This document shows positions 11,169 to 52,779 of a DNA stretch of 64,000 bases, piece by piece (the first letter of the stretch is position 1; every line of letters begins with the position of its first letter). Position numbers and translations under genes: made by a program. Below the pieces are notes generated by a model that saw only the letters and a list, made by a program, of their open reading frames with translations, was not told where the DNA came from and made no database searches. The DNA is from Candidatus Marinacidobacterales bacterium (GTDB taxonomy: Bacteria; Acidobacteriota; Vicinamibacteria; Marinacidobacterales; DATDRI01), in assembly GCA_965226495.1 (NCBI GenBank), contig OZ245365.1, positions 1,056,001 to 1,120,000 on the forward strand, given 5' to 3'.

Positions 11169-11941
11169 GACAGCTCTCCCGCGGCAGGCTCGGGACGTTC
11201 CGAAGGGGGCGCCATAGTGGAGGTCAGCCGGTAGAAGGGCTTCTCGAGAGATCCCCCTTCTTCGAGCTCTCGAGGCGTACCTTCGAACACGAGCCGTCCG
11301 TTGTGGACGAAAAGCACGTAGTCCGCGACTGCGTCTACTTCTTGCAGAATGTGGGTCGAGATGAGGATGGTCTTATTGCTGCCGAGATTGCGGATGTTCT
11401 CGCGGAACTGTCGGATCTGATTGGGGTCCAGACCGGCGGTGGGCTCATCCATGATGAGGACCTCCGGATCGTGGAGGAGCGCCTGCGCGAGCCCCACTCT
11501 CTGCTTGAGTCCTCTCGAGAGTTTGCCTATGGGCTTCTCCATCACTTGGTGGAGTGCACAAAAACTGCGAACGAAATCGAGGCGGTCTTTCAACTGCTGC
11601 GGACTCATCTCACGCGCTTCGCCGAAGAACTCGAGGAGCTCCTTCGGTGTCATGTCCGGGTAGAGCGGACCGTTCTCCGGAAGATAGCCGAGCTTCTTGG
11701 ACGCCTCGATGCGCTCCTTGTGTACATCGAGCCCGGCGATGCGCGCGGCCCCGGCGCTCGGGGCGAGATAGCCCGTTAGCATCTTCATCGTCGTGGTCTT
11801 GCCGGCACCATTTGGTCCCAGGAAAGCGACGATCTGCCCTTCCGGAATGGAAAAGCTGATGTTCTCTGTGGCGACGAAGGGCCCGTAGTACTTCGTCAGA
11901 CCCTGCGCCTCGATCATCGGTTTCGAGGAAGCGGTTTCCAT
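11165..11941 (-). CDS. ABC transporter ATP-binding protein (GldA-like)
   Basis: Walker A GPNGAGKTT, signature LSRGLKQR, Walker B ILMDEPT-type (LIMDEPT), H-loop ISTH. Confidence 0.92.
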   Translation of the reverse strand: METASSKPMIEAQGLTKYYGPFVATENISFSIPEGQIVAFLGPNGAGKTTTMKMLTGYLAPSAGAARIAGLDVHKERIEASKKLGYLPENGPLYPDMTPKELLEFFGEAREMSPQQLKDRLDFVRSFCALHQVMEKPIGKLSRGLKQRVGLAQALLHDPEVLIMDEPTAGLDPNQIRQFRENIRNLGSNKTILISTHILQEVDAVADYVLFVHNGRLVFEGTPRELEEGGSLEKPFYRLTSTMAPPSERPEPAAGELS

Positions 11942-12238
11942 GGAACGTGTACCTCCTTAATTAGTGTGAGTTTGCGGGGCTCTGTCGGCTGAGTTCGTTC
12001 CGAGCGCCCCCCAAGCCCAAATGGTAGGAACGTCCGATTCTACTCAAACGCTCTCATCAATACAAGTCTCGATAGCGTTATAACAGTTATGAACAAAGGG
12101 GTTAACTGGTTGGGGCACCGAGTGGTGCGTGAAAAAGGTAGGAACCCCTTTGAAGAGGCGAGATTGCGCCCCCCGGGAACGCCTCGTCCAGACGAAGCTA
12201 TCGCGAGGGGGGAGAAACCCAAGTGAGGCTAACAAGGG

Positions 12239-12265
12239 GCTTACCAGGTGGGTGGCACCTGGTGG
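12239..12265. repeat. Left copy of 27-bp imperfect inverted repeat flanking the MNIO operon
   Basis: gcttaccaggtgggtggcacctggtgg vs reverse complement of 14681-14707 (gcttaccaaatgggtggcacctggtag): 24/27 identical. Confidence 0.8.
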
Positions 12266-12322
12266 TCGACTGCAGCTGGTGGTCGACTGCAGCTGGTGGT
12301 CGACTGCACCTGGTGGTCGACT
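12255..12322. repeat. 17-bp tandem repeat x4 (gca[c/g]ctggtggtcgact)
   Basis: Four consecutive units without spacers, abutting the stop codon of the DUF2063 gene. Confidence 0.9.
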
Positions 12323-13154
12323 ATTCGACGGCCTGGAAGATGCCTTCGCGAACCCAATCCCGGAACCAGCGAAAGAGCTGCTCCTCGCCCACCACCCCTC
12401 GTCCTCGCATTTTCCGAGTTGCAGCCACCGCATCGCCCAGGGCGGTCCCCTCGGCGAGAGCTTGGAGCAGGTCGTGCGCTGACCGGGATAGCTCGAGGCG
12501 CCAACAAGCGTAGTTGCGGCGGAAGACGGCGACCCTCGTGTCCTTCTTCCGGGCGTTCGGATGATCGTGGTCGTCTTCCTTCACCGATGTCAGGTAGGCG
12601 TTAACCGGGTACTGAAAGGACAGCAATTGAAAGGCTTCGATAGGCCGGAGCCGCGCGTCCGCCCAAGCCTCCGTCGGAACCTGAGCGATTTGTTCCGTGG
12701 TGAGAACAGGGGACTCGGGTGCATCGAAAACCTGACTCACGGCGAGCTCTAGTCGCGCCAGATCATGGAGAAACCCTCGTCGCGCGATCCCCGAGGCGGC
12801 ACGGATGTACTCCGGCAAATGATCTCCCAGACGATTGAGGGTATAGCTCCGCGAGGGGAAGGCCTCGACGTACGCGGCGACAAGCTCGTTGAACGCCTCG
12901 TCACCCAAGAAATGGGCGAGGGCGGGGTAGTCCGTCTCCAGGGCTTCCGCGAGGCGAACGAGATACATTCCGCGATAGACGTCCAGGCGCTCGAGCGATG
13001 TCAGCGTCGAGGAGGGCAGGATGATCCTCGTGACCTCGTCGGCGGGAATTCCTTCCGATGCCGCCGCGTCGAGCGCGTCCTCCTCGCTACCCGGGTGGAC
13101 GATGAACGTCTGCATCCACCGCTGGAATTGTTCCAGCTGGATCTCAGTTGCCAT
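12321..13154 (-). CDS. DUF2063 / HvfC-BufC-like MNIO partner protein
   Basis: LEQFQRWMQTFI, ERLDVYRGMYLVRL.EAL..DYPAL...LG...F..L..AY....PSRSYTL, DLARLE; overlaps end of DUF692 gene. Confidence 0.88.
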   Translation of the reverse strand: MATEIQLEQFQRWMQTFIVHPGSEEDALDAAASEGIPADEVTRIILPSSTLTSLERLDVYRGMYLVRLAEALETDYPALAHFLGDEAFNELVAAYVEAFPSRSYTLNRLGDHLPEYIRAASGIARRGFLHDLARLELAVSQVFDAPESPVLTTEQIAQVPTEAWADARLRPIEAFQLLSFQYPVNAYLTSVKEDDHDHPNARKKDTRVAVFRRNYACWRLELSRSAHDLLQALAEGTALGDAVAATRKMRGRGVVGEEQLFRWFRDWVREGIFQAVE

Positions 13155-14007
13155 GGGTGTTCGCCGCCAATGGTTTGATCACGGTCTCACGATAGGCGCT
13201 GGCTTTCAAGACTTCGTCGTGCACGACGCCGAACTCCGGAATGTCGGCGTCCCATTCGAGAAGCGTAGCCACACCGCCTGTTCGCTGACAGCTCTGTCGG
13301 TAGAGCTCCCAGACCTCGTCGATCACATGGTCATTGTGCGTGTCGATGATGTGAGTCCCCTTGTTGGTGTGTCCCGCGAGGTGATATTGGACCACGCGAT
13401 CGGCGGGGATGGCATCGATGTAGACGCGCGAGTCGAATCCGTGGTTGAAAGAGCTGACGTAGACGTTGTTCACGTCGAACAAGATCCCGCAGTCAGCCTC
13501 TTCGAGGAGCCGCACGAGAAAGTCCCACTCCGTCATCGCGGAGGACTCAAACTCCAGGTAAGTCGACGCGTTCTCCAAAATCAGCGGTCGTTCCAAAAAG
13601 TCCGAGACTTCTTTGACCCGCGATACTGTGTGCCGGAGCGCCTCTTCTGTATACGGCATCGGCAGGAGATCGTGGACGTTCTGGCCCGCGACTCCCGTCC
13701 AACACAGGTGATCGGAGATCCAATGCGCCTTGGCGCGCGCCGCCAGCTCCTTCAGCTTGCGCAGGTAATCCCAGTCGAGAGGGTCGCCGCTGCCGATATT
13801 CATGGACACGCCGTGCATGGCGATGGGATAGCGCTCCGCCACCTGGTCGAGGATGTAGAGCGGCCTTCCTCCCGTGTCCATGAAATTCTCGGATAGGATC
13901 TCGAACCAATCCACGTCGGGATGATTGGCGAGGATGTGCCCAAAGTGGACAGTACGCAGGCCAACCCCCAGCCCGAGATCGGGGAAGTTCCAACGATTGG
14001 CAGTCAT
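13144..14007 (-). CDS. DUF692 multinuclear non-heme iron oxidative enzyme (MNIO; MbnB/BufB family)
   Basis: GVGLRTVH, WFEILSENFM, HGVSMNIGS, SDHLCW, HDLLPMPY, LEN, DVNNVYVS, QYHLAGH, IDTH, LLEWD; likely start ATG at 14007. Confidence 0.95.
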   Translation of the reverse strand: MTANRWNFPDLGLGVGLRTVHFGHILANHPDVDWFEILSENFMDTGGRPLYILDQVAERYPIAMHGVSMNIGSGDPLDWDYLRKLKELAARAKAHWISDHLCWTGVAGQNVHDLLPMPYTEEALRHTVSRVKEVSDFLERPLILENASTYLEFESSAMTEWDFLVRLLEEADCGILFDVNNVYVSSFNHGFDSRVYIDAIPADRVVQYHLAGHTNKGTHIIDTHNDHVIDEVWELYRQSCQRTGGVATLLEWDADIPEFGVVHDEVLKASAYRETVIKPLAANTHGN

Positions 14008-14090
14008 AGGAAGGACGTTCGTGTAGCCACACCAACAGGGAACGAGGGAGGTCACGGGGACGCCCGTGACCTCCTATCAGAACACAGCGA

Positions 14091-14450
14091 CTACTTTTTC
14101 TTCTGGTGCTCGGGCTTCAGAGGAACTTCGCAACCGCCCTGACCCTTGCAGTCGTTCTTGCCTTCTTTGCCACCGCAACCGCCCTGGCCCTTGCACTCGT
14201 TCTTGCCCTTGCAATCGTGCTTGGCGGCGGCAGAGGCGCAGCCGCCCTTGCCTTTACAGTCGTTCTTCCCCGCGCACTCGTTGTTATCGGTTTTGCAGCC
14301 ACCTTGCCCCTTACACTCGTTGTGGCCCTTACAGATATGCTTGGCCTCTTTCTCCTCCTCGGCCTTCTTTTCCTGCCCAAAGGCCTTGGAGCCGACGAGC
14401 ATGCCCGCAACCGTGGCGCCCATCAGCTTGTTAAAATCTCTCCTATCCAT
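14091..14450 (-). CDS. Cys-rich MNIO RiPP precursor, BufA2/bufferin-like, with Tat-type leader
   Basis: MDRRDFNK twin-arginine leader, AFG cleavage site, 11 Cys in CKGHNECKGQGGC / CAGKNDCKGKGGC / CKGKNECKGQGGC / GKNDCKGQGGC; GGAGGA RBS; directly upstream of DUF692. Confidence 0.88.
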   Translation of the reverse strand: MDRRDFNKLMGATVAGMLVGSKAFGQEKKAEEEKEAKHICKGHNECKGQGGCKTDNNECAGKNDCKGKGGCASAAAKHDCKGKNECKGQGGCGGKEGKNDCKGQGGCEVPLKPEHQKKK

Positions 14451-14578
14451 CAGTCCTCCTCCCCCGGCTCAACGCTCACATCCGGGCCCTCACACCTTGT
14501 AGTACGTCGTGGCCGGCATAACGGATTACATCTCTCGAAGGCGAGAAGCCCGGTCCGCTGTCGCGCCGGTAGGCGACT

Positions 14579-14606
14579 AATATACGGCGCCCCGCGTTAA
14601 AGTCAA
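14579..14606 (-). promoter_or_regulatory. Putative sigma70-type promoter of the MNIO operon
   Basis: Minus strand TTGACT-N16-TATATT about 130 bp upstream of the precursor start. Confidence 0.5.
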
Positions 14607-14680
14607 TGACTAACTTCTTGGGTCCGTTACAACTGGACAAGGCTATGTTTTACAATGGGTTGTAGCCGTTCGCCACGGAT

Positions 14681-14707
14681 CTACCAGGTGCCACCCATTT
14701 GGTAAGC
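14681..14707. repeat. Right copy of 27-bp imperfect inverted repeat flanking the MNIO operon
   Basis: ctaccaggtgccacccatttggtaagc, inverted relative to 12239-12265. Confidence 0.8.
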
Positions 14708-14880
14708 ATGCCAATCGTGGTCGGCAACGCACCTGATTACGACCTGCTGCCCCCGCAGGTCGGTGCCGCCTGGAAGACTGATCATCAATAAGAATGGCCG
14801 GCCAGGCGTCCTACAGAAACGAGCAAACGACGAAGGCAGGTCCGCGCCGTGCTAACTCGCCCGATGAGAACGGCACGGAA

Positions 14881-15366
14881 TCACATGCGAATCTCCCGGT
14901 TTTTGATGAGCAGGTTTCCCGCGGCGTCGAAAGCGTTCTTGAGAGTGAAGGCTCGCGGAGACGGTCCAGCCTCCCACAGCCGGTCAAACCGTCCCAAAGC
15001 CTGCTCTACCGTCGGAAGCTGGCCCGCTTCGATCCACCACAGCACCAGCGATGGGCGCTCGGCCGAATGAAACCACTCGCGTCGCTTGCGAAAGAAATCT
15101 CCATGCAGCTCTCGGTACGTGTAGCGCTTGAGGTCTTCAATGGATTGCCACACCGACATGTTGAAGAGAACAAGCGGATCGCCGAGCACCCGCACGTCGG
15201 TGGCGTCCCCCACTTCGGTTTGAAACCTCCAGACGAAGCCCGGGGCCTGCTCCGCGGTGGCATTCACCCGCGCGAGGCCTTCCCGAAATTCGAACATGCT
15301 TGCATCTTGAAGTGGATGAAGCATCCAGGCCAGGTTGGCTTGCGCCAGATGTTTCGCTCGAGCCAT
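14881..15366 (-). CDS. DUF3291 domain protein
   Basis: HLAQAN, AEQAPGFVWR, NMSVWQSIEDL..YTY...H..F..KRREWF, LWWI, GPSPRAFT. Confidence 0.85.
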   Translation of the reverse strand: MARAKHLAQANLAWMLHPLQDASMFEFREGLARVNATAEQAPGFVWRFQTEVGDATDVRVLGDPLVLFNMSVWQSIEDLKRYTYRELHGDFFRKRREWFHSAERPSLVLWWIEAGQLPTVEQALGRFDRLWEAGPSPRAFTLKNAFDAAGNLLIKNREIRM

Positions 15367-24009: not shown

Positions 24010-25461
24010 CTATGCAGTCGCGGATGCTCGAGCGATCTCGGCCGCGGCTTCCAATGAGCCGACAGACCAGCAGAGGGAGATGAGCTTCTCCGTCTGTTTG
24101 GAGCTCAAGATTCCCTCGGCTTGACCTCGAAACTTGGCCTCCAAGTCGGCGTCCGTCATGGGGCGTTTCAGACTTCCGATGGCGTGTTCGATATGCTCTG
24201 TCAGCTTGCGTCCGTCGCTGAGCACGATCGTCACGTAAGCTTCGTCCTCGCGTATGCCACTTTCAGTCACGGCAGTGACGCGATCGCGCAAGGCGATGAC
24301 CTCGGGAGCCTGGACGGTGGCGTCGGTGAATTCCTTTTGTCCGGCGGCGCCGCGAAGGATGGCCACGGCGCTCGAGTGGTAGACGCTGAACTTTCCCTCT
24401 AGACCAGTAGAGGGGGACTTCTTGCCAGTAAGCTCCAAAACCAAAGGGTGTACACGGAGCTCCACCCGCTCGATACTCTCGGCCACGAGTTGGTGCTCGC
24501 GACGCAATTGAATGCAGCCGTCGATCACGGGATGTATCACGATGCCGCAGGCGAACGGCTTGTAGGTGTTGCGGGTGATCTCGAAGTTTTCTCCCAAGCC
24601 TTCGGTGATTGCTGAGAAATCACGTTCCTCGGATAGAACATAGGCGAAACCACGAGGCGCTTCGAGAACTCGTTCGGAGCTGGTGAAGTCCTTGGACGCC
24701 AGCAAGGCCGAGGTGAGTCCGTTCTGGGCAGCCCGGCCAGGGTGGAAGGATTTGCACATCGTGCCGAACATCTCCCGAAGTCCCGCCGATTGAGTGCCCG
24801 CAATCCCGAGAGCCCAAGTCATCTGCCGCTCATCGAGCCCGATTAGCTTGCCTGCCGCGGCGGCCGCTCCGAACACACCCGCGGTTCCAGTGATGTGGTA
24901 CCCCCGGTCGTAGTGCCATGGATAAACGGATCGACCGATGCGGCACTCTACATCCACGCCGAGGGTGAAGGCGTGAAGGAACTGTTCGCCGCTCACCGGT
25001 CGTTTTTCCGCGAGGGCTAGGATCGCCGAAGCCACCGGTCCAGCCGGGTGAATGATTGTTTCGAGATCGGTGTCGTCGAAGTCCAGGACGTGCGAGCTGA
25101 TCCCATTCACGAGGGAGGCGTGCAAGACGTCGAGGCGCTCCCCCCGGCCGATGACGGTCGCCACCCGGGGCCCGGAGAACTCCGACAAAGCTGCCAAGGC
25201 TCGCTCGACCGTCTCTTGGTGAGAGCCGCCCACGGCGCAGCCGACCCAGTTCAGGACGGATCGGGTCGCCTCCTTTCGCGCCGGTTCGGGAACGTCGGAC
25301 CATTTCGAGGCCACCACATATCGGGCGAGCTGGCGGGTCACGTCGCCATCTGGTGTGGGACGGCTTGATTTCGCCATGCCCATCGGAGCGGCCTGGGAAA
25401 CACCGAGTACAGCGGATGTCTTAAGGAACGTTCGTCTCGAGATATTTCTCTCTTGGTTCAT
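24010..25461 (-). CDS. MmgE/PrpD family protein with Tat signal
   Basis: ISRRTFLK leader; NGISSHVLDFDDT...HP, GYHITGT, KSFHPG, KPFACG, EGKFS. Confidence 0.88.
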   Translation of the reverse strand: MNQERNISRRTFLKTSAVLGVSQAAPMGMAKSSRPTPDGDVTRQLARYVVASKWSDVPEPARKEATRSVLNWVGCAVGGSHQETVERALAALSEFSGPRVATVIGRGERLDVLHASLVNGISSHVLDFDDTDLETIIHPAGPVASAILALAEKRPVSGEQFLHAFTLGVDVECRIGRSVYPWHYDRGYHITGTAGVFGAAAAAGKLIGLDERQMTWALGIAGTQSAGLREMFGTMCKSFHPGRAAQNGLTSALLASKDFTSSERVLEAPRGFAYVLSEERDFSAITEGLGENFEITRNTYKPFACGIVIHPVIDGCIQLRREHQLVAESIERVELRVHPLVLELTGKKSPSTGLEGKFSVYHSSAVAILRGAAGQKEFTDATVQAPEVIALRDRVTAVTESGIREDEAYVTIVLSDGRKLTEHIEHAIGSLKRPMTDADLEAKFRGQAEGILSSKQTEKLISLCWSVGSLEAAAEIARASATA

Positions 25462-25657
25462 GAGTCTCCCCAGCTTTGTGTCGTGGCCGCCATATCGGCG
25501 TTGGCACGATCGTTGCCGTTTCCCGGTGGCAGGTCAAGTGCGCGATGAGGGTTGAGAAGCTGCGGCGTGTCGCGCCCCCACCGTGGTAACATCTGCTGCC
25601 ACCCCTGAGTGGCGTACCTCGAGAACCAACGTTCTTCCACGGATTCAAGGAGACATC

Positions 25658-28135
25658 ATGCGGATCCTCTTAGCATCGCCCGCGCTCTTTATGATCACGG
25701 CGGGTTTGGCTAGTTTGACAAGCTTGGCAGGGGCCCAAGTGCGGCCGACCGACCCGGGTGCTGGCAGAAGCATTACCATCGCCGTCGTTCGCGACGGGCC
25801 GATGCCAGAAGACTTCTCGACGCGCGTCGAAAGCGAGCTACGGGAAGTGGCGGCTCCCGACACCGAGCTCCATTTCGTGAGGACTCCGGAGCTCGACGGG
25901 CAGTGGGATCCCGCGAGCGCTCGAGAAGCGCTTCGCGCCGCACTCGATAACCCGGACATTGACTTCGTCCTGGCACTTGGAGCCGGTGTTAGCGCCGCGG
26001 CCGCCGAAGTGCCCCTGTCGAAGCCGGTCGTCGCGACGTGGGCCCAGCGGCCCGACTTTGGCGTCATCCATGAGCACGAAAACAATCGCTCGCAAACCGA
26101 GAACCTCGCGTTCATGGCGATACCGCAACTACTAGAAACCGATTTAGGCTCGCTGCGGAGTATCTTCCCGTTTCCCGAAGCGGCTCACCTGCTCTTGCCG
26201 GAATCGTATATCGGTGCCAACGAGAATCTCAGCTCGGAAATACAGGCCCTCGAAGAGGGTGTCGGAGTTCGAATCCAGCTGGTCCCTCTCGGGGCGAGCG
26301 TCTCCGAATCGATGGCGACAATGCCAGCTGATGCCGTCGTCGCATTCGTTGGACGCACTCCAGAGTGGGCGGCCTCCGATCGACGCGCGCTCTTCGAGGC
26401 GCTGACCGCCCGCGGTATCCCAACCTATGGTCTCGTCGGCCACGCCGACGTCGAGATAGGCGCTCTCGCCGGAAGGACGCCCGATATTTCTCAGCTCGTC
26501 GCGCGGCGCGCAGCACTCAACTTGAACGAGCTCATTCGAGGTAGCTCCACCGACGTTCTCCCGGTCATGCTCGACGTCGATCCGGTGCTCTTGGTCAATG
26601 GAAAAACGGCGACGGCACTAGACTATGTGCCGACCTATGAAGCACTCGTCACCGCTCGGTTTCTTTTCGAGGACGTGATGCGCAAGGATGAACAGCCCCT
26701 GAGTTTCCCGGAAGCACTCACCCAAGCGAACGAAGGCAACCCGTTCCTCCGAGCTTCCGAGCAAGCAGTGCAAACGTCCTATCACTCGTGGAAGCTCGCC
26801 AAGAGCCCGCTTCTCCCTCAAGCATTTGCCGGACTGGCAGCGTCCGGTCGTAACGTCCGCGGACTCGAGGGGTTGATTCCGGACAAAATCTTGAATGGCG
26901 GCTTTAGCGTGCGCCAGATGATCTACGATGACGCCCGCGTCACCGACTACAAGTCCGAGGGCCGCCTCTATGAGGGGAGTCAGGAAGGGTTCGAAGTCGA
27001 TCGGCTGGATGTATTGGCGGACGCGGGTAACGCATTTCTGAGCTTGGTGCTCTCGGAGATTCTGTTCCGTGTCGACGCCGACAACCTCCGGCTCACCCGC
27101 GACAATCTCGAGCTTTCAAAGGTTCGACTGGACGCAGGCTATTCGGGGCTCGACGAAGTGTATCGGTGGGAGTCGGAGCTCAACTCGCGCCAGAGCATCC
27201 TCTTTAGGAGCCGATCGAATATCGAACAGGAGCGGATCGCGCTCAACCAGATTCTCGGGCTCCACCAGTACCTACGCTGGCGGCCCGAGGAGATCGACGT
27301 CGATCCGAAAGTGTTTCCCTTTCTGGGCGGCGGCCTGAGCGGTTACCTGAAGGATCCGCAAAAATTGGACAGCTTTCGTCAGTTCTTGGTACAGTTCGCG
27401 TTCGAGAACACGCCGGAGCTTTCCGTGCTGCAGAAAGCCCTCGAAGCTCGGCAGCTTCAGCGCGACCAGCGTGGGCGGCGGTGGTGGCTGCCCGTCTTCG
27501 ACACCGGCTTCCAGTGGGGCTACGACATCGCTCGCACTCCAGATCTGCCTGACTTGGATCGGAGCGACTGGATGTGGGACATTCAGGCCGCCTATCCCAT
27601 TTTCGAAGGGGGCGCGCGTGCTGAAGACGAGAAGCTCAATGTCTCCGAGGTAGCGCGGCTCGAGAAGGAGATCATCGATGCCCGTCAGATCGTCGAGCGT
27701 CGGGTGCGCACTTCGGTGCGCGCCATCGAGGGTTCCTTTCCCAGTATCGGCTATCTGAACGCGGCGGCGGAGGCGGCGCGGCGGAACTTCGAGATCGTCC
27801 AAGACCGGTACACTGAGGGGCTGGTCAACGTGACCGACCTCCTGGACGCTCAGAACGATCGTTTCATTACCGAGCGGACCGCACGCGGTGCGCAGTACGC
27901 GTTCCTGCTCGATTTGGTCGCGCTCCAGCGAGCCATCGCGTGGTTCGAAGATATGAAAACCAAAGAAGAACGGGATCAACTTCTGGAACAGGCACGAGCC
28001 TATGTCGACAGTCCGACGCCTCCGCCTCCAGAGGGCGATGCGGCTAGGGTTTTCGACCTGGTAGCGCCTAGTGGGCCCGCACCGAATCGAGCGCGGGCCG
28101 GAGTTGAGAGCGTTTTCTCGGGGAGGAAGCCATGA
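25658..28135 (+). CDS. TolC-family outer membrane protein with N-terminal ABC substrate-binding-like domain
   Basis: About 330-aa N-terminal alpha/beta domain, then OEP repeats (DVYRWESEL, RYTEGLVNVTDLLDAQ); RBS GGAG before ATG 25658. Confidence 0.82.
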   Translation: MRILLASPALFMITAGLASLTSLAGAQVRPTDPGAGRSITIAVVRDGPMPEDFSTRVESELREVAAPDTELHFVRTPELDGQWDPASAREALRAALDNPDIDFVLALGAGVSAAAAEVPLSKPVVATWAQRPDFGVIHEHENNRSQTENLAFMAIPQLLETDLGSLRSIFPFPEAAHLLLPESYIGANENLSSEIQALEEGVGVRIQLVPLGASVSESMATMPADAVVAFVGRTPEWAASDRRALFEALTARGIPTYGLVGHADVEIGALAGRTPDISQLVARRAALNLNELIRGSSTDVLPVMLDVDPVLLVNGKTATALDYVPTYEALVTARFLFEDVMRKDEQPLSFPEALTQANEGNPFLRASEQAVQTSYHSWKLAKSPLLPQAFAGLAASGRNVRGLEGLIPDKILNGGFSVRQMIYDDARVTDYKSEGRLYEGSQEGFEVDRLDVLADAGNAFLSLVLSEILFRVDADNLRLTRDNLELSKVRLDAGYSGLDEVYRWESELNSRQSILFRSRSNIEQERIALNQILGLHQYLRWRPEEIDVDPKVFPFLGGGLSGYLKDPQKLDSFRQFLVQFAFENTPELSVLQKALEARQLQRDQRGRRWWLPVFDTGFQWGYDIARTPDLPDLDRSDWMWDIQAAYPIFEGGARAEDEKLNVSEVARLEKEIIDARQIVERRVRTSVRAIEGSFPSIGYLNAAAEAARRNFEIVQDRYTEGLVNVTDLLDAQNDRFITERTARGAQYAFLLDLVALQRAIAWFEDMKTKEERDQLLEQARAYVDSPTPPPPEGDAARVFDLVAPSGPAPNRARAGVESVFSGRKP

Positions 28136-29283
28136 AGGGGTTCAGAACGAACAGCACAATTTGGGTCTCGCTGTTTGCCGCGGCATTGACACTGCCCGGC
28201 TGCGGTTCCGACCAGATCGTCGAGCGCGAGCCGGTGGTAAGACCTGTCAAAACGATGGTAGTGGGAGGGGGACAAGGTGAAAGTCTTTCCTTCCCGGGTA
28301 CCGTAAGACCTGTCAAAACGATGGTAGTGGGAGGGGGACAAGGTGAAAGTCTTTCCTTCCCGGGTACCGTTCAAGCTGCCGACCGGGCCGAGCTCTCGTT
28401 TCGCGTCGCGGGGCCGCTCGTCGAGCTCCCGGTGAACGAGGGCGACGAGGTTCGCCGAGGACAACTTCTGGCTCGCATCGATCCTCGCGATTTCGAGATT
28501 GCGCTGGCAGAATCACGAGCCGCTTTCGAGAAAGGCGAAGCCGATTACAATCGCTACAAGAACCTCTACGAACGGAATGCGGTGCCTCTGGCGGAACTAG
28601 AGCTTCGCCGGGCGCAGCGCGACGTTTCGGCGGCTGGGTTCGATCAGGCGCAGGCGAACCTTCGCGATACGAGGTTGTTGGCACCCTTCAGCGGCCGCGT
28701 GGGCCGGAAGTTCGTCGAGAACTTCGAAGACGTGGTCGCGAAGGAACGAATTCTCACGCTTCATGACATCAACCGGGTCGAGGCCGTCATCGATGTTCCC
28801 GAGTACGTGATGGCCACCTTCCGAGATCGTAGCGACCGGCGGTTCACCGCGAGCTTTACCTCCGCACCCGGAGTCGAGTTCGAACTCAGCTTCAAGGAGG
28901 CCGCCGCCGAGGCCGACATTCAGACCCAGACGTTCCGGGTGACGTTCTCGATGCCGCAACCCGAAGAGCTTCGTGTGCTCCCGGGGATGACCGCGGAAGT
29001 GAACGCCTACGTTGAAGCCCCCGTCGACGAGGCCGGCGGTCCTGCGGAGTTCCTCATCCCCGCCGAGGCGCTTTTCGCTTCCCCGGGCGGCGATCCTCAA
29101 GTGTGGGTGGTAGACACGGGCGATCTCACTGTTCACCAACGAGAGGTACGGGTGGGTCCGGTAACCGGAGAAAACTCCATCCGCGTCCTCGAGGGGTTGG
29201 AACGGGGAGAAACGATTGCAGTCGCGGCCGTGCACCAGCTACAAAATGGCTCAAAGATCCGGCTGATGGCGCGCCGCAATTAG
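28132..29283 (+). CDS. RND efflux periplasmic adaptor (MFP) lipoprotein
   Basis: LPGC lipobox, LSFRVAG, EGDEVRRGQLLARID, APFSG, PGMTAEV. Confidence 0.92.
   Translation: MKGFRTNSTIWVSLFAAALTLPGCGSDQIVEREPVVRPVKTMVVGGGQGESLSFPGTVRPVKTMVVGGGQGESLSFPGTVQAADRAELSFRVAGPLVELPVNEGDEVRRGQLLARIDPRDFEIALAESRAAFEKGEADYNRYKNLYERNAVPLAELELRRAQRDVSAAGFDQAQANLRDTRLLAPFSGRVGRKFVENFEDVVAKERILTLHDINRVEAVIDVPEYVMATFRDRSDRRFTASFTSAPGVEFELSFKEAAAEADIQTQTFRVTFSMPQPEELRVLPGMTAEVNAYVEAPVDEAGGPAEFLIPAEALFASPGGDPQVWVVDTGDLTVHQREVRVGPVTGENSIRVLEGLERGETIAVAAVHQLQNGSKIRLMARRN
28237..28368 (+). repeat. Exact 66-bp in-frame tandem duplication
   Basis: VRPVKTMVVGGGQGESLSFPGT encoded twice by identical DNA (28237-28302, 28303-28368). 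Confidence 0.92.
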
Positions 29284-29295
29284 CGGGGGACGCTG

Positions 29296-32200
29296 ATGCT
29301 TGCTAAGTTCGCCATAGAAAAGAGCGTTATCACGTGGACGTTCACGCTCGTACTTCTCGTCGCAGGTTGGATTTCGTTCCAAAACCTCGCGCGACTAGAA
29401 GACCCCGAGTTCACGATCAAGAACGCCATCATTACGACACCCTATCCCGGTGCCTCGGCGGTCGAAGTCGAACAGGAAGTCACCGACGTCATCGAGCGGG
29501 CCGTCCAGGAGCTCGGCCAGCTCCTTCGGGTCGAGTCGACTTCCTCCCGCGGCGTGTCCAGCGTCAAGGTCACTATCAAAGATCAGTACGACAAGAACGG
29601 GTTGCCTCAGGTGTGGGACGAGCTGCGAAGAAAGGTCAACGATTACCAGAGCCGGCTTCCACCCGGCGCTGGGCCGTCGACCGTCAATGACGACTTCGGC
29701 GATGTCTACGGCATCTACCTGGTACTGACCGGTCCGGGCTACTCCTACGCGGAGCTCAACGAGACCGCGAAACTTATGAGGCGCGATCTGCTACAGGCGG
29801 AAGATGTGAAGCGCATCGTCCTCTGGGGCGTGTGGCAAGAGGCCGTCTACGTCGAGATGTCACGACCGAAAATGGCGGCTCTCGGCATCTCGCAAGAAGA
29901 GATTTACAACAAACTCAGCGCCAAGAACCTTCCCGCTGATGCGGGAAGGGTGCGGTTGCCGCCCGAGTATATTCCCATCAACCCGACCGGAGAGTTCACC
30001 TCGGAACAGCAGTTCGGAGACCTCCTACTCACCACCCGCGAAGGAGGGCAGCAGGTTTTCCTTCGGGACGTCGCGACGATCCGGCGCGGCTACGTCGAGC
30101 CGCCGCGGAACATCGTGCGGTTCAACGGAGAACGAGGCATCGGTCTCGGCATCTCCACGGTGCAAGGAGGCAACGTGGTGGTGATGGGCCAGGCGATTGA
30201 AGACAAGCTCTACCAGCTCGAGACCCAAATTCCTCTCGGGATGAAGCTGAACGTCATGTCCCTGCAATCGCAATCGGTGACCGACTCCATCAACAGCTTT
30301 CTCGTCAACCTGGTCGAGGCGATCATCATCGTCCTGGTGGTGCTCTTTCTGTTCATGGGCGTGAAGAGTGGATTGATCATCGGCGGCATTCTCGTTCTTA
30401 CTATATTCGGGACGTTTCTCTTCATGGGCCTCTACGAGGTCACGCTGGAACGCATCTCACTCGGAGCACTGATCATCGCGCTCGGCATGCTGGTCGACAA
30501 TGCGATTGTGATCGTCGAGGGTATGAAGGTACGCATCGAGGCCGGCATGGAGCGTCTCAAGGCCGCTACGGAGGTTGTCAATCAAAACGCCATACCACTT
30601 CTCGGTGGCACCGCGGTGGCCATCACCGCTTTCGCCGCCATCGGAACGTCGGATGACAGTACGGGCGAGTATTGCCGATCGCTCTTCACCGTTATTCTGA
30701 TCTCACTTGGCTTGAGTTGGCTCACCGCCGTAACCGTTACACCGCTCGTCTCCTACTTGTTGTTCAAACCGAAGGAAGGTGGCGGCGGTGATGCGGAAGA
30801 CGCCTACAGCGGCGGGATGTTCCGGCTTTACAAAACCGGTCTCATGACGGCGATTCGCTTCCGCGGCGTGACTATGGCAATCGTTTTGGGTATCTTTGTC
30901 GCTTCTCTCGTCGGCTTTGGATCGGTGAAGCAGCTGTTCTTCCCAGACTCCACACGGCCGCAGTTCTTCGTCGAGTTCTATTTTCCCGAGGGAACCCACA
31001 TCTTCGATACCGAGAAGCGCATGGGGCGGGTCGAGGAATACCTGAAGGCTTTGGAAGGTGTGACCGACGTGACCACCGCGATTGGCGGAGGCGACCTGCG
31101 CTTCCTTCTAACCTACGAGCCGTTAGGCGCGTCGAGCGCCAACGCCAGTGTTTTCGCGTCGGTGGAGGAGTACGGGATGATCGCAGCGCTTGCCCCGCAG
31201 GTGCAGGCCGACATCGAGGAGCTCGTGCCCGAGGCGGTGGTGAACGTACGCCAATTCCGCCTGGGACCGGGCGAAGGCGGCCGGATTCAACTCCGTGTCA
31301 GCGGAACGGATCCGGCGCTGTTGCGCGAGATGTCCGAGAGGGTCAAGGACATCATCAAGGAAGAGGGTGGGCAAGGTGTTCGTGACGAATGGCGAGAGCA
31401 GGTCAAAGTGGTGCGGCCCCAGCTTGCCGAAGCCCAGGCACGGCAGCTCGGTATCGACCGACCGCAGCTCGCCCGGGCACTTCAAAGCGCCTTTGACGGC
31501 ACCCAGACCAGCGTCTATCGCGAGGGGGATGAGCTGTTGCCTATTGTTGCCCGCTCTCCCGAGTTCGAGCGCGACAACGTGGACAACATCCGGGCGCTCC
31601 AGATCTGGAGCGATGCCGCTGGCCAGATGGTTCCGATGCGTCAGGTGCTGACCGGGTTCGAGACCGTGTACGAGGACGCCAATATTTGGCGCCGCGACCG
31701 CCGGACCACGGTGCGAATCCATGCCGACGCGGCGCAGGAGCTTCCGAGTGAGCTCATGGTGCGGATCAAACCGCGGATCGAAGAGGCATTGAACGTGGAT
31801 CTGGACGCCTACTTCGGGCGCTCGCTCGGCGAGGATCCGTTTGCCAATCACACCGCGAGCACCATCCCCATCCGCTTTTCGGACCTGATCCCGATCAAGA
31901 ACTTGCCTGGTTACTACATGGCCTGGGGCGGTGAGGACGAGGATTCCGCGAAGGCGCTGAGCTATCTCGCGACCTCGTTCCCGATCTTCATCGCCATCAT
32001 GATCGTCATCGTGGTGGCCCTTTTCAACTCGGTCCGTGAGCCTCTCATCATTTGGCTGACCGTCCCACTCTCGATCATCGGCGTTACCTTTGGGCTTCTC
32101 ACATTCAGCCAGCCATTCGGGTTCATGGCTCTTCTCGGGCTCATGAGCCTGACCGGAATGCTCATCAAGAACGCCATCGTGTTGATGGACGAGATCAACT

Positions 32201-32454
32201 TGAATCGGAGTAAGGGGAAACGGCAGTTCTGGGCGGTTGTCGATGCCGGCGTTAGTCGCATGCGCCCGGTCATGATGGCGGCGGCGACGACCATTCTTGG
32301 CATGATTCCACTATTGACGGATGCGTTCTTTGTCGCGATGGCGGTGACGATCATGGTCGGATTGCTGGTGGCTACGGTATTGACGCTCGTCGTCGTACCG
32401 GTGCTCTATACGATCCTCTTCCGAGTGCCGTACGAGGGGGATACGCCAGCGTGA
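29296..32454 (+). CDS. RND efflux permease (AcrB/AcrD/AcrF family)
   Basis: 1052 aa, EDPEFTIK, GMLVDNAIVIVE, GMLIKNAIVL, RMRPVMM. Confidence 0.95.
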   Translation: MLAKFAIEKSVITWTFTLVLLVAGWISFQNLARLEDPEFTIKNAIITTPYPGASAVEVEQEVTDVIERAVQELGQLLRVESTSSRGVSSVKVTIKDQYDKNGLPQVWDELRRKVNDYQSRLPPGAGPSTVNDDFGDVYGIYLVLTGPGYSYAELNETAKLMRRDLLQAEDVKRIVLWGVWQEAVYVEMSRPKMAALGISQEEIYNKLSAKNLPADAGRVRLPPEYIPINPTGEFTSEQQFGDLLLTTREGGQQVFLRDVATIRRGYVEPPRNIVRFNGERGIGLGISTVQGGNVVVMGQAIEDKLYQLETQIPLGMKLNVMSLQSQSVTDSINSFLVNLVEAIIIVLVVLFLFMGVKSGLIIGGILVLTIFGTFLFMGLYEVTLERISLGALIIALGMLVDNAIVIVEGMKVRIEAGMERLKAATEVVNQNAIPLLGGTAVAITAFAAIGTSDDSTGEYCRSLFTVILISLGLSWLTAVTVTPLVSYLLFKPKEGGGGDAEDAYSGGMFRLYKTGLMTAIRFRGVTMAIVLGIFVASLVGFGSVKQLFFPDSTRPQFFVEFYFPEGTHIFDTEKRMGRVEEYLKALEGVTDVTTAIGGGDLRFLLTYEPLGASSANASVFASVEEYGMIAALAPQVQADIEELVPEAVVNVRQFRLGPGEGGRIQLRVSGTDPALLREMSERVKDIIKEEGGQGVRDEWREQVKVVRPQLAEAQARQLGIDRPQLARALQSAFDGTQTSVYREGDELLPIVARSPEFERDNVDNIRALQIWSDAAGQMVPMRQVLTGFETVYEDANIWRRDRRTTVRIHADAAQELPSELMVRIKPRIEEALNVDLDAYFGRSLGEDPFANHTASTIPIRFSDLIPIKNLPGYYMAWGGEDEDSAKALSYLATSFPIFIAIMIVIVVALFNSVREPLIIWLTVPLSIIGVTFGLLTFSQPFGFMALLGLMSLTGMLIKNAIVLMDEINLNRSKGKRQFWAVVDAGVSRMRPVMMAAATTILGMIPLLTDAFFVAMAVTIMVGLLVATVLTLVVVPVLYTILFRVPYEGDTPA

Positions 32455-47320: not shown

Positions 47321-49285
47321 CTATGGCGTATACCAGATCGGCGAGGTATAGGCGCGCTCCTGGAGTGTCATCGATCGGCGAGGTATAGGCGCGCTCCTGG
47401 AGTGTCATCGGTCTTTCGGCATCGTCACGCCAAAACGCTTGGAGTCGTACGCCGTCCAGCGTGGCGTTGGAATCTCAAGCACGCGCACATAATAGAAGGC
47501 GCGCTGTTTCGGGTCGAAGTCCGGGTCCTTCCAGTAGGCCATCATCAGCGGGTCGCCTATCGAGTTGCGATACGTCGCGTTCGGGACGTCAACCGTCGAG
47601 CCAACAGGGGTCTTGCAGCGCCCGTCGGTACCGATCTTGCGGCCGTCAGACACGGCCGTGTCGTAGACGCGCTCGTGCACTTCGCCTTCGCTGTCGAGCC
47701 AACCCTTAATGATCTGCACCCGGTCGAGGTTCGCGCCGTCAACATCGCGCAGCGTCCGTACCATTAACGTTGGCGCTTTACCGGCAGGAGCTTCTCTCAG
47801 GTCGCCCCCCATGGGCACGCCACGCCTGTAGCCCTGCGCCGCGAAGTCGGGCCGTTCGACTTCCTCCGGCTGGAAGTCCCAGCCGGCAAAGACCCGCACT
47901 GTGATGCGCGTGCCAGTCGTGCCATAGACTTCTTTGCGCGCCATCGCGTCAAAGAGCGACTCCCGTGTGTTCTCGCGGGACCAGATACCGAGCAGGCCCC
48001 CAGCCTGGACATTCCAGGTGGACGCGACAACCTCGCCGTCCTGGCCGCGCATGAAGACGTGTTTCCAGCGAATCGGGCTCGGCTCGTCGGACGCCCATTT
48101 GCCGAAAAAGTTGTCTTCCTCGACGGTTGACATCGAAGTGTGCGTGTCGGTCGAGCCGATCATGCCGAACTTGAACGGGTTGGCGCCGAGTTTCTGCGTC
48201 CACTGCAGCCCGAGCTTCAGGGCCGAGCGCGCATATTCGGTCCGCAGCATCTCATTTTCCTTCGGGTCGCTCGGCGAGTTGAAGTTGCCGAAATCCCAAG
48301 TCTCGAAGTCAGCGAACTCGTCGTCGGTAGACAGGAACGGATGAGTCTCACCGTCGCCCTTGCTTTGTGTGATTTCGAGCAACGGCTCGCGCCGCGCCCG
48401 CTCTTCGGCGTAAGCGCGGGTAAAGGCTTTGCCCGTATACGTCTCTCCCTGGAACATGCGCCCATTACTCATGTTCCCGTTGTGCGGGATCGCGAGCACC
48501 TGCCCGTCCGTCTTCTGCTCGTAGGCAGCCATGTATTTCCACAGGTCTTCGGGATCGGCACTGTCGATGGCGGAAAACGGCAGGACCTGGTTCACTCGGC
48601 CCGGGCCGTCACGGAAGATCACGACGCGGTGGAGGTTATTGGCACCGGGAAAGCTGGTCCACTCAAAGCCGTTGAAAGCGGTGAACTTCCCGGGCTCGTT
48701 GTAATTGGTGGCGATGGCCGTTACTCGTTCCCAGATGGAGCGCCTCGTCTTTGGGCCCAATTCCTTTCCCGTGCCCGGATAGATGACCGCTTTGGCAACG
48801 TCGAACGCTGCCATGAGAGCTTTCTCGCCCCCGGCCTGGACCGCTTCATACCACCGCTTACCCTCAGGCGTGGCCAGCATGGCGGGATCAGCTCCTAAGA
48901 TCAGGTCCGCTAGGCCCATCATCTCCGCGTGGTCAGACACGACCAGGAAATCGAACGGCCGATTGAGCCTCACGCGCAAGCCGGTGTTCGACAGTACCTC
49001 CTCACCTCGCGCGAAGCGGTAAGAGTCTTCCGGCCCAAGCCTAGTGCCCATGAATCCATCGTCGTAGGACAAGTTGGAGTGGTGGTGCGTATCGCCCCAG
49101 AACACACGATTGGGAAAATGCTGATCCACGTAGGGCGAGTACTCGACTTTCTTGGCAGGAGCGTCCTCCGCGCGGGGCAGTGTCTCCTGCGCCCGCGCAG
49201 GCGGCGCCAGAGTGAGCCCGACGGCAAAACAAATTGCCACTAGAGCCGTCAGGGCTGAACTTCTGAGTTTTGAGGTTCTGATCAT
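47321..49285 (-). CDS. DUF3604 domain protein (secreted), C-terminus frameshifted and duplicated
   Basis: Signal peptide, FWGDTHHHS, DFLVVSDHAE, NLHRVV, IPHNGN, KGDGETHP, TDTH, YYVRVLEIPTPRW; QERAYTSPIWYTP lies out of frame ending at 47321. Confidence 0.85.
47336..47409. repeat. Exact 37-bp tandem duplication
   Basis: gatcggcgaggtataggcgcgctcctggagtgtcatc x2. Confidence 0.9.
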
Positions 49286-50700: not shown

Positions 50701-50877
50701 CCAACGAACACGCGCATCTTTGGACCGACGTACCCGGTTCTTTTTGTCCTGGCAGGGGTTTGCTGGTACTGGCATCCACGGAGGGTGATTGCACGCCCAA
50801 CGGACATGTAGGTTTTTTATTTGCGTGATCGCAACACCGGCAAAGACAACAAATCTATAAAAAGAATGTGGAGAAGA

Positions 50878-52779
50878 ATGATGAAAGCTCTATCAACCGC
50901 CGCCATCACATGGCTCGTATTAATAGCGCCCAATTATGTCCTTGCTCAGGATTACACGCCCCAGCAAGACCAGGTGCCGGAAAAAAAGCACGAATATTCA
51001 CCGTACGTCGAACAGCATTTCCCAATGCGAGTGTACTTTGGCGATACACATCACCATTCATCCTATTCCTTCGATTCCGGCATGTTCGGAAACACACTTG
51101 GGCCGGAGGAATCGTTCCGTTTCGCCCGGGGTGACGTAGTCGTTGCGACCAATGGAATGAAAGCCAAACTCATTCGACCGCTGGATTTTCTGGCGGTCAC
51201 CGATCATGCTTCATACCTTGGATTTACTGAGTTAATGGCCAATTCCGATCCCCGTTTGATGGCCACCAAGGGCGGCCGAGAGATGGTCGAGGGTTACCAG
51301 GCCGGCGGTGAAGAAGCCTGGTTGTTAGTGGTAAGCATGATGAAGGATTTCGACATCGGTAAGCCCCGTCTCGAAGACCCCGACCTCAGCCGGAGCGTTT
51401 GGGAGCGTGTGGTGGATATTGCCTCCGAATACAATGAACCCGGATTTTTTACCGCTTTCAATGGCTACGAGTGGACATCTGCGCCTACCGGAAACAACTT
51501 GCACCGCAACGTGATCTTTCGTGACGGCCCGATTCGTGTGAAGCAAATCGTACCGTTCTCGGCATTTGATAGCCCCGACCCTGAACCCCTTTGGGAGTTT
51601 ATGGCCGCTTACGAAGCGAAGACGGGAGGACAAGTACTGGCAATTCCCCACAACCCGAATATCAGCAACGGTATAACGTTTGCAGAGACCATGAGCAATG
51701 GAAAACGACTTACCCGGGAATACGCTGAGAAGCGCGCCTTGTGGGAACCGCTGCTGGAAGTCACCCAAGCAAAAGGGGACAGCGAAGCCCATCCTTTCTT
51801 ATCTACCGAGGACGAGTTTGCAGATTTTGAAACATGGGATTTCGGCAATGCCGGATCGCCAATGAAGCCGAAAGAGAACGATATGCTGCAATATGAATAC
51901 GCTCGCTCGGCTCTGCAATGGGGTATGAAACATAAATTGAAATTGGGCGTAAATCCCTTCAAATTCGGCATGGTCGGCGGCACTGACACCCACACTAGCC
52001 TGTCAACAACCAGAGAAGAGAATGTTTTCGGAAAACTGCCAGCCTTGCTGCCAGGTCCAGACCGAACCGGAGAAGCCATGGTGATGAAAGCGGACGGTAC
52101 ACCCGCGGTGGAGTCATGGGAGACAAGTGCGTCCGGCCTTACCGGCGTCTGGGCGCAGGAAAACACTCGCGAGTCCTTGTGGGATGCCATGGCTCGTAAG
52201 GAAGTTTACGCCACCACCGGTACCCGCATCACTGTCCGCGTTTTTGCCGGATGGGATTTCGAAGCAGATGAAGTAGAACGCCCGGATTTTGCCAAGCAGG
52301 GCTACAGTCGCGGGGTACCCATGGGTGGCGACCTTACTGCAGCGCCAGCCGGTAAGACGCCGACCTTCATGGTACGGGCTCTGCGCGACGTCGACGGGGC
52401 CAACCTCGACCGCCTCCAGGTCATCAAGGGCTGGATCGATGCCAATGGCCTACCGCGAGAGAAAATATATGATATCGCGGTTTCAGACGGACGGACCATC
52501 GGTCCCAATGGCCGCTGTAAAACGCCGGTCGGAAGTACTGTGAATGTTGCCAACGCAGACTATACGAACTCGATCGGCGATGCTTTGCTGATGGGCCACT
52601 GGAAAGATCCGGAATTCGATGCAGATTTGCACGCCTTTTACTACGTTCGCGTAATCGAAATCCCAACGCCGCGCTGGACGGCTTATGATGCCGAGCGCTT
52701 TGGCATCACGATGCCGGATAAGGTAACGATGACAGTTCAGGATCGGGCCTATACGTCGCCGATCTGGTATACGCCATAG
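50878..52779 (+). CDS. DUF3604 domain protein (secreted), intact paralog
   Basis: Signal peptide, YFGDTHHHS, DFLAVTDH, NLHRNV, IPHN, TDTH, QDRAYTSPIWYTP. Confidence 0.88.
   Translation: MMKALSTAAITWLVLIAPNYVLAQDYTPQQDQVPEKKHEYSPYVEQHFPMRVYFGDTHHHSSYSFDSGMFGNTLGPEESFRFARGDVVVATNGMKAKLIRPLDFLAVTDHASYLGFTELMANSDPRLMATKGGREMVEGYQAGGEEAWLLVVSMMKDFDIGKPRLEDPDLSRSVWERVVDIASEYNEPGFFTAFNGYEWTSAPTGNNLHRNVIFRDGPIRVKQIVPFSAFDSPDPEPLWEFMAAYEAKTGGQVLAIPHNPNISNGITFAETMSNGKRLTREYAEKRALWEPLLEVTQAKGDSEAHPFLSTEDEFADFETWDFGNAGSPMKPKENDMLQYEYARSALQWGMKHKLKLGVNPFKFGMVGGTDTHTSLSTTREENVFGKLPALLPGPDRTGEAMVMKADGTPAVESWETSASGLTGVWAQENTRESLWDAMARKEVYATTGTRITVRVFAGWDFEADEVERPDFAKQGYSRGVPMGGDLTAAPAGKTPTFMVRALRDVDGANLDRLQVIKGWIDANGLPREKIYDIAVSDGRTIGPNGRCKTPVGSTVNVANADYTNSIGDALLMGHWKDPEFDADLHAFYYVRVIEIPTPRWTAYDAERFGITMPDKVTMTVQDRAYTSPIWYTP

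Follow-up and report, generated by a model that had tools for sequence, protein, structure and literature searches.

Bufferin gene clusters are the closest described relatives of the operon analyzed here, which lies on the minus strand of a 64,000-nucleotide stretch (hereafter, the window) of contig OZ245365.1 from a Candidatus Marinacidobacterales bacterium (Acidobacteriota) and encodes a Cys-rich precursor, an MNIO (DUF692) enzyme and a DUF2063 partner. In Caulobacter vibrioides, copper induces both buf operons, and one of them, buf2, consists of bufA2, bufB2 and bufC2 without a DoxX gene (PMC11626156). According to the text of that study, the BUF_6/12Cys family is defined by conserved Cys that number six or 12; Cys I and Cys VI of Buf2 stay unmodified and probably form a disulfide, and the central Cys are each converted to a 5-thiooxazole with a mass change of -4.03 Da. 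The same text reports that BufA1 is modified on overexpression without its signal peptide.

A further study (PMC12452194) presents bufferins as the first RiPPs (peptides made by ribosomes and modified post-translationally) to use Sec, and its authors name premature export of the unmodified precursor as a problem. They used SignalP 6 and called the Buf2 signals Sec; lipoprotein signals, found in ~16% of Buf2 precursors, are likewise placed 'after Sec-dependent export'. In the text of this study, 12 Cys occur as duplicated 6-Cys domains in ~10% of Buf2 precursors, sigma/anti-sigma genes are found in Buf1 clusters and not in Buf2 clusters, and many precursor genes do not adjoin MNIO genes. The PME-type 1 partners are suggested to mask the signal peptide, which, according to preliminary data, is part of the BufB–BufC recognition sequence. 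Finally, the text of PMC13097082 describes a 'Cys-Lys' captophorin group, whose common 5-mers include HNDCK and NACKG, and reports Asp251 of BufB2 as a specificity residue.

The family to which the operon in the window belongs has thousands of members, and the operon is ordinary among them except in one trait: its precursor has a conserved export signal of the twin-arginine type, which is unmentioned in the published bufferin papers. The words 'Tat' (twin-arginine translocation) and 'twin-arginine' are absent from the texts of PMC11626156, PMC12452194, PMC13097082 and PMC8692599; PMC13097082 uses none of the terms 'signal peptide', 'Tat' and 'periplasm', and two supplement files of PMC12452194, one of them in part, contain no 'TAT', 'SignalP' or 'SPI'. 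A search of the literature on twin-arginine together with MNIO, DUF692, bufferin or RiPP gave nothing relevant by title, with the supplementary logos of PMC11626156 lying outside that search. As far as searched, a Tat-like leader of bufferins is not discussed in print. An earlier note on this DNA, made from its letters without database searches, had called the leader unlike the Sec-type leaders of bufferins, and this agrees with the texts of PMC11626156 and PMC12452194, which speak of Sec only.

Operon structure and family assignment

The earlier note had described a compact precursor–DUF692–DUF2063 operon. Three same-strand open reading frames (ORFs) indeed fill positions 12321–14450 of the window, and Pfam and NCBIfam searches confirmed the DUF692/MNIO and DUF2063 families:

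14091..14450, minus strand: bufA2-like precursor gene, an ORF of 119 aa with 11 Cys, stop codon included
13144..14007, minus strand: bufB, MNIO (DUF692) maturase, matched by NF050167 and PF05114; probable start at ATG 14007
12321..13154, minus strand: bufC, DUF2063 partner (PME-type 1 in the published naming), matched by PF09836

The start region of bufC overlaps the bufB stop by 11 nt. The open frame of the MNIO spans 13144–14055 and begins at a GTG (14055) located inside an intercistronic hairpin. Since the Pfam match starts at residue 29 of this long frame, and since ATG 14007 yields MTANRWNFPDLG, as in relatives, the ATG is the likelier bufB start.

Profile searches with hidden Markov models (HMMs), a check that the earlier note had proposed, bore out its reading of a BufA2-like precursor in an MNIO/DUF2063 RiPP operon for the MNIO and its partner and fell just short for the precursor. 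The MNIO passed the NF050167 MNIO_BufB equivalog model (359.1 bits, cut-off 310) and PF05114 (DUF692, 358 bits), and failed the models for HvfB (263 bits, cut-off 360) and for methanobactin MbnB (TIGR04159; 58 bits, cut-off 325). Among solved structures it is nearest to 3bww, which is likewise a DUF692 protein (E 1.7e-51). The partner passed PF09836 (DUF2063; 76.1 bits, cut-off 27.2) and failed NF050145 HvfC (45.9 bits, cut-off 142). The precursor matched NF050166 BufA2 at 54.5 bits (E 1e-14), below the cut-off of 60; this model gave no match in the control genomes, Caulobacter included. The match falls into two stretches, as follows from a precursor built of two module copies. The anatomy of the precursor is as follows:

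14376..14450, minus strand: predicted signal peptide, residues 1–25, with n-region MDRRDFNK, h-region LMGATVAGMLVG and c-region SKAFG
14427..14444, minus strand: twin-arginine-type motif RRDFNK, residues 3–8, a conserved RRxF with a hydrophobic stretch
14094..14375, minus strand: predicted core, residues 26–119, a charged linker and then two 6-Cys-type modules

Cleavage of the signal after AFG is inferred from the small-residue rule for positions -3 and -1. The charged linker, QEKKAEEEKEAK, leads into the Cys-rich part, where 11 Cys occupy residues 40, 46, 52, 59, 65, 71, 80, 86, 92, 101 and 107. The sequence G.N[ED]CKG[QK]GGC is present four times, at residues 42, 61, 82 and 97, with an extra Cys two residues upstream in repeats 1–3 and a Glu in repeat 4. 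All of these features, including the MDRRDF start, had been listed in the earlier note and were found in the sequence. The repeats make up two modules, residues 38–72 and 78–108, each consisting of two C-x5-C-x5-C cassettes and reading AKH[I/D]CKG.NECKGQGGC followed by the second cassette. The fourth cassette lacks its first Cys, and alignment with 12-Cys relatives places a gap there: Cys IV of the second module was lost along with a small deletion (GGKEGKNDC, compared to KTDNNECAGKNDC in the first copy). The 11-Cys layout is common to the closest relatives (precursors P0001–P0003 and loci L032 and L042), which shows that it is a trait of the lineage and not an error. By its predicted architecture, the precursor is the published doubled (12-Cys) Buf2 form minus one Cys.

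The precursor is not a chance ORF, since 2071 of 2305 candidates were homologous to it at E<=0.001 and an exhaustive search gave 1586 cluster representatives matching at the same threshold. Pfam contained no meaningful family for the precursor, for five relatives or, at E<=10, for residues 1–35 of the window precursor, and PF10518 was unmatched. An AlphaFold2 model of the precursor, built from a 41-row alignment, reached a mean predicted local distance difference test score (pLDDT) of 46.3 and a predicted template modelling score (pTM) of 0.17; within this low overall confidence it placed a helix at residues 3–25, and the signal-peptide helix was the only part of moderate confidence. A three-chain prediction of BufB, BufC and precursor scored 0.79, compared to 0.70 for a control with BufB replaced, and is evidence neither way.

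The A-B-C order of the same three gene types recurs in related loci, which come from at least three phyla. The nearest relatives among named loci are metagenome-assembled genomes (MAGs) of Acidobacteriota. In the closest of these loci (L032), nucleotide identity is 88% over 2420 nt and corresponds exactly to window positions 12315–14725, that is, to the three genes plus ~275 nt upstream, with unrelated flanks on either side; the two MNIOs are 94% identical.

Compared to C. vibrioides bufferin 2, the locus has the same precursor–MNIO–DUF2063 order and the same C-x5-C-x5-C cassettes with Cys-Lys dyads, and its MNIO passes the BufB equivalog. Both lack DoxX and an adjacent sigma/anti-sigma pair: in agreement with the earlier note, Pfam revealed no DoxX or sigma-factor domain in 30 neighboring ORFs, and the five DoxX matches over cut-off in the genome are all distant from the window. 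The differences are a precursor under the BufA2 cut-off, 11 Cys where Buf2 precursors have six or twelve, and an RRxFxK leader instead of the published Sec-type leader. The precursor gene has MNIO and DUF2063 (PME-type 1) genes as its neighbors, as in Buf2 clusters, and the 'Cys-Lys' captophorins described in the text of PMC13097082 also resemble it in the Lys that follows Cys and in a cluster type of MNIO plus PME-type 1. The oxazolin (HvfA) and fontiphorin ('Lys-Cys') group has a related MNIO and DUF2063 pair and repeat-rich, Cys-rich exported copper-binding products; unlike oxazolin, however, the 119-aa precursor of the window contains no EGKCG, and its Lys comes after Cys rather than before it. 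Taken together, these data make it very probable that the operon, bufA-bufB-bufC, belongs to the Buf2 (BUF_6/12Cys, 'Cys-Lys captophorin') type. The earlier note had also suggested a distinct undescribed subclass on the basis of gene content. We abandon this suggestion, because the doubled repeat, the missing DoxX gene and the missing extracytoplasmic function (ECF) sigma/anti-sigma pair are ordinary Buf2 traits in the descriptions given by the texts of PMC11626156 and PMC12452194.

The twin-arginine-type leader

The n-region MDRRDFNK carries Arg-Arg, a Phe two residues on and a Lys four residues on. This pattern is conserved in relatives. Among the 120 closest homologues, RRxF plus a hydrophobic stretch was present in 113, RR without Phe in 3 and neither in 4; among the 150 best cluster representatives at 50% identity, the corresponding figures were 76 with RRxF, 11 with another RR form and 63 with none. 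Lys or Arg stands two residues past the Phe in 91/113 of the closest homologues and in 58/76 of the representatives, giving the motif RRxF[T/S/N]K. We also compiled 109 genomic loci including the window, drawn from 30 loci of a 301-genome sample of the window's phylum and 80 named loci; 54 of the 109 have RRxF and 55 do not. RR leaders occur in Acidobacteriota, Planctomycetota and Gammaproteobacteria (Steroidobacteraceae, Woeseiaceae).

The leaders outside the RR type are Sec or lipoprotein signals of the usual kind, such as MKKTKSALVSAAVAGLLFG...TSC and MKKGDLTTKAIGLAIAGVLAG. They nevertheless align position by position with the RR type (for example, MKKTNLNKALSAAVAGLVAG versus MDRRDFNKLMGATVAGMLVG), and an h-region motif, AAVAGxxAG, is common to both. 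In a maximum-likelihood tree built from 96 linked MNIOs (quick search, support given by SH-aLRT only), all 48 RRxF rows fell within one 75-row clade (SH-aLRT 81), interspersed with MKK-type or lipobox leaders. Leader state required 7 changes on this tree, compared to a mean of 32.3 for shuffled labels; none of 500 shuffles was as low, and the starred branches force at least 2 changes. The confinement to one clade and the low number of changes indicate that the RR state is heritable, clade-bound and switched several times.

Some RR-type leaders have a lipobox-like ..G-C end (loci L019, L049, L077, L081, L084, L086, L089 and L090; precursors P0164 and P0216). These would be twin-arginine lipoprotein signals, distinct from the signal-peptidase-I type of the window. 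One of these loci, the planctomycete L081, has two precursor-like genes (at ~3501 and ~5567), one on either side of the MNIO gene. The genome from which the window comes contains a second buf locus at ~5.965 Mb (L010; G000:C1:5964768-5966724), in the order MNIO, DUF2063, precursor and with a YceI-like ORF after it. Its precursor has 92 aa and 6 Cys, passes NF050166 (63.2 bits) and carries a plain Sec-type leader, MKKPSPRSLLVASLAG / MKKPSPRSLLVASLAGVLTVPLAMA; its MNIO is 51% identical to that of the window.

Tat signals are expected to have a weaker hydrophobicity of the h-region and a basic c-region. The h-region of RR-type leaders was less hydrophobic (mean best 12-residue Kyte-Doolittle window of 1.94, compared to 2.21 for the others), with more Gly (25% versus 14%) and less Leu (12% versus 22%), and a basic residue followed the h-region within 6 residues in 35/54 RR-type leaders compared to 15/55 others. 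We then compared the N-termini with curated models, omitting the badly windowed or truncated rows L006, L102 and L108. TIGR01409 listed 12 of the 54 RR-type N-termini, three of which passed (L031, 19.3 bits; L055, 17.0 bits; L090, 20.7 bits), and none of 51 non-RR N-termini. Any Tat-signal-bearing model, a set that includes TIGR01409, formate_TAT, Csp1 TAT_Cys_rich, HmcB, DsrO and Rieske, was matched by 27/54 RR-type N-termini and by 1/51 others.

The genome encodes TatC (PF00902, 229.4 bits). When it was scanned with TIGR01409 at E<=10, 41 proteins were listed, 25 of them over the cut-off. The sub-threshold matches all read as N-terminal M..RRxF[L/I] signals, which shows that the cut-off is conservative in this genome. 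The Tat-like leader is real as a conserved motif with the correlated features expected of it. The leader is probably functional, though below the threshold of the curated model. The Tat-type leader proposed in the earlier note thus stands as a conserved twin-arginine-type motif and does not stand as a formal match, the cut-off of 16.7 bits being missed.

Expression signals and genomic surroundings

The region around the precursor gene contains the following putative expression signals:

14579..14606, minus strand: promoter-like site TTGACT-16 nt-TATATT, a consensus match ~130 nt upstream of the precursor start
14454..14462, minus strand: Shine-Dalgarno-like GGAGGAGGA, read from the sequence, just upstream of the precursor ATG
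14047..14074, minus strand: intercistronic GC-rich hairpin in the gap between precursor and MNIO genes, with a 12-bp stem and a 4-nt loop

The promoter-like site is the sole sigma-70-like site in positions 11900–14900, where shuffled sequence gave a mean of 0.4. Both hexamers are kept at L032, as TTGACT and TATAGT, and L032 and L042 retain GGAGGAG at the ribosome-binding site. The hairpin has a minimum free energy of -32.9 kcal/mol (z -2.7). Of the 12 loci folded, 11, namely the window, L020, L023, L032, L033, L034, L036, L037, L041, L042 and L053, form a strong hairpin at this position, though not with a conserved sequence; the exception is L016, whose gap between precursor and MNIO genes is just 27 nt. 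An analogy to further RiPP operons suggests that the hairpin in the window is probably an attenuator or mRNA stabilizer, which would raise the precursor-to-enzyme transcript ratio. Rfam gave zero matches in positions 11900–15000 at E<=1. Two metatranscriptome runs contain 0.22 and 0.18 of the sampled words, a measure of word content alone.

Pfam assigned ABC transporter parts, a DUF3291 protein, an AraC regulator, hydrolases and an RND pump to the 30 neighboring ORFs. The pump belongs to an efflux trio at 25583–32454 (plus strand), 11 kb from the buf operon, which comprises an outer-membrane factor, a CusB/HlyD-like adaptor and an AcrB-family pump. At 24010–25461 (minus strand), a protein of the MmgE/PrpD family begins with a canonical Tat signal (ISRRTFLKTSAVLG; TIGR01409, 20.1 bits). 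Less than 4 kb separates two large paralogues of DUF3604 (737 and 768 bits), at 47405–49285 (minus strand) and 50821–52779 (plus strand). Right after the DUF2063 stop, at 12255–12322, a 17-bp unit, GCACCTGGTGGTCGACT, is present as four head-to-tail copies (96% matches), and an 8-bp hairpin follows. The unit has no other copy in the 6.3-Mb genome and is not present at the locus of the closest relative.

Discussion

We conclude that the window most likely carries a Buf2-type operon whose modified Cys peptide would leave the cytoplasm through Tat and buffer copper in the periplasm, an explanation that draws on sequence comparison. Export through Tat rather than Sec is favored, though short of firmly, by the twin-arginine-type signal itself, with its MDRRDFNK n-region, Gly/Ala-rich h-region and Lys in the c-region. 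In the corresponding mechanism, the precursor would be synthesized in the cytoplasm, where BufB and its DUF2063 partner BufC would, by homology, turn the central Cys in both 6-Cys modules into 5-thiooxazoles by oxidation. If the rule described for Caulobacter Buf2 holds here too, seven sites would be modified (C46, C52, C59, C65, C86, C92 and C101); the pairs C40–C71 and C80–C107 would be left free and form disulfides after export, giving a predicted mass shift of about -32 Da on the 94-residue core. Export of the product would be post-translational, so that with the Tat route the enzymes would have time to work ahead of it, and the 25-residue signal would be cut after AFG. That the peptide leaves in a folded or metal-loaded state, as the earlier note had suggested, is conjecture. 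The double-domain peptide would then bind Cu and buffer copper excess in the periplasm; copper is a reasonably likely metal for the product, by analogy with the characterized bufferins.

A number of observations weigh against this explanation. The isolated N-terminus of the window precursor scored 14.3 and 14.0 bits with TIGR01409, under the cut-off of 16.7, just 3/54 RR-type relatives pass that model, and in the genome scan the precursor ranked last of the 41 matches, at 12.5 bits. The canonical Tat consensus, RRxFLK, has Leu after the Phe, and the polar residue found here departs from it: the residue at this position is T, S, N, A or G, and Leu occurs in only 2/76 representatives. A signal of 25 residues is short for Tat, and two Arg in the n-region are also compatible with Sec. 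The p values of 1e-8 and 1e-4 obtained for the h-region and c-region statistics overstate the evidence, as the rows are related, and the tree shuffles, made on related sequences, likewise overstate independence. As for the rest of the explanation, the precursor misses the BufA2 cut-off, its structural model is unusable, so that the double-domain fold of the core is one read from sequence and from the published description, and Pfam placed no copper gene among the ORFs adjacent to the operon. Finally, the authors of PMC12452194 had SignalP 6 at hand and still write 'Sec', and the recognition sequence described in the text of that study means that the conserved N-terminus could instead be a BufC recognition element.

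This last possibility underlies an alternative that we consider rather unlikely, in which the same operon and product would use Sec export, with RRxF[T/S/N]K providing n-region charge and a docking motif for a DUF2063/RiPP recognition element (RRE)-like BufC. The missed Tat HMM cut-off, the polar residue after Phe in nearly all members, and the Sec assignment together with the preliminary recognition data in the text of PMC12452194 are all in its favor, and the presence of AAVAGxxAG in RR and non-RR leaders points to constraints beyond export. A docking motif would not, however, be expected to coincide with RR-x-F-x-K just behind the start Met, or to co-vary with a lower h-region hydrophobicity and a basic c-region. 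Moreover, relatives with 64–75% identical MNIOs and homologous BufC proteins carry KK or no basic pair, which shows that the enzymes do not need RRxF, and the signal peptide of BufA1 was dispensable for modification on overexpression (PMC11626156, in its text). The two functions could also reside in one leader, which would be both a Tat signal and a BufC-bound element, with BufC acting like the proofreading chaperones TorD and DmsD until the thiooxazoles are installed. We regard this as doubtful: the Tat motif evidence and the suggestion in the text of PMC12452194 of a signal peptide masked by PME-type 1 partners support it, and its dependence on an analogy to redox-enzyme maturation proteins counts against it. 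It is in any case a sub-case of Tat export.

It is highly improbable that the gene encodes an unmodified, metallothionein-like Cys-rich periplasmic protein and that the MNIO and DUF2063 proteins act on another substrate. Cys-rich, Tat-exported copper stores do exist. The four-helix-bundle protein Csp1 (TIGR04401) is, like the precursor, Cys-rich and equipped with a twin-arginine leader, and it binds copper; the leaders of 5 relatives weakly match the first 34–38 positions of its model (E 0.02–0.09), with the window leader not listed. This is an analogy only, as Csp1 has an unrelated fold and undergoes no enzymatic modification. The many precursor genes that the text of PMC12452194 places away from MNIO genes would also fit an unmodified protein. 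In contrast, the tight A-B-C arrangement with its 11-nt B/C overlap, the recurrence of this order in loci of at least three phyla, the closest relative that shares just the three-gene block (88% over 2420 nt), and a BufB that passes the equivalog model all argue for modification of the precursor by its neighbors. Collectively, these considerations lead us to retain a modified Buf2-type peptide that is probably exported through Tat.

The Tat route works after translation and accepts cargo that is already folded or modified. For this reason a Tat-routed branch of bufferins, if true, would answer the premature-export problem in about half of the cluster representatives closest to this precursor, and it would give a simple test system that includes natural RR/KK pairs. 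We further suggest, tentatively, that a large multi-phylum Buf2 branch is Tat-exported and that its RR leader is also the handle by which the DUF2063 protein holds the precursor until the thiooxazoles are made. If this were the case, the branch would offer a RiPP equivalent to the proofreading chaperones of Tat, and the recurrent changes between RR and KK within one homologous signal would be natural experiments in the re-routing of a RiPP between Sec and Tat. Should the peptide, in addition, leave the cell folded or copper-loaded, cytoplasmic copper would be moved out, and the periplasm not merely buffered.

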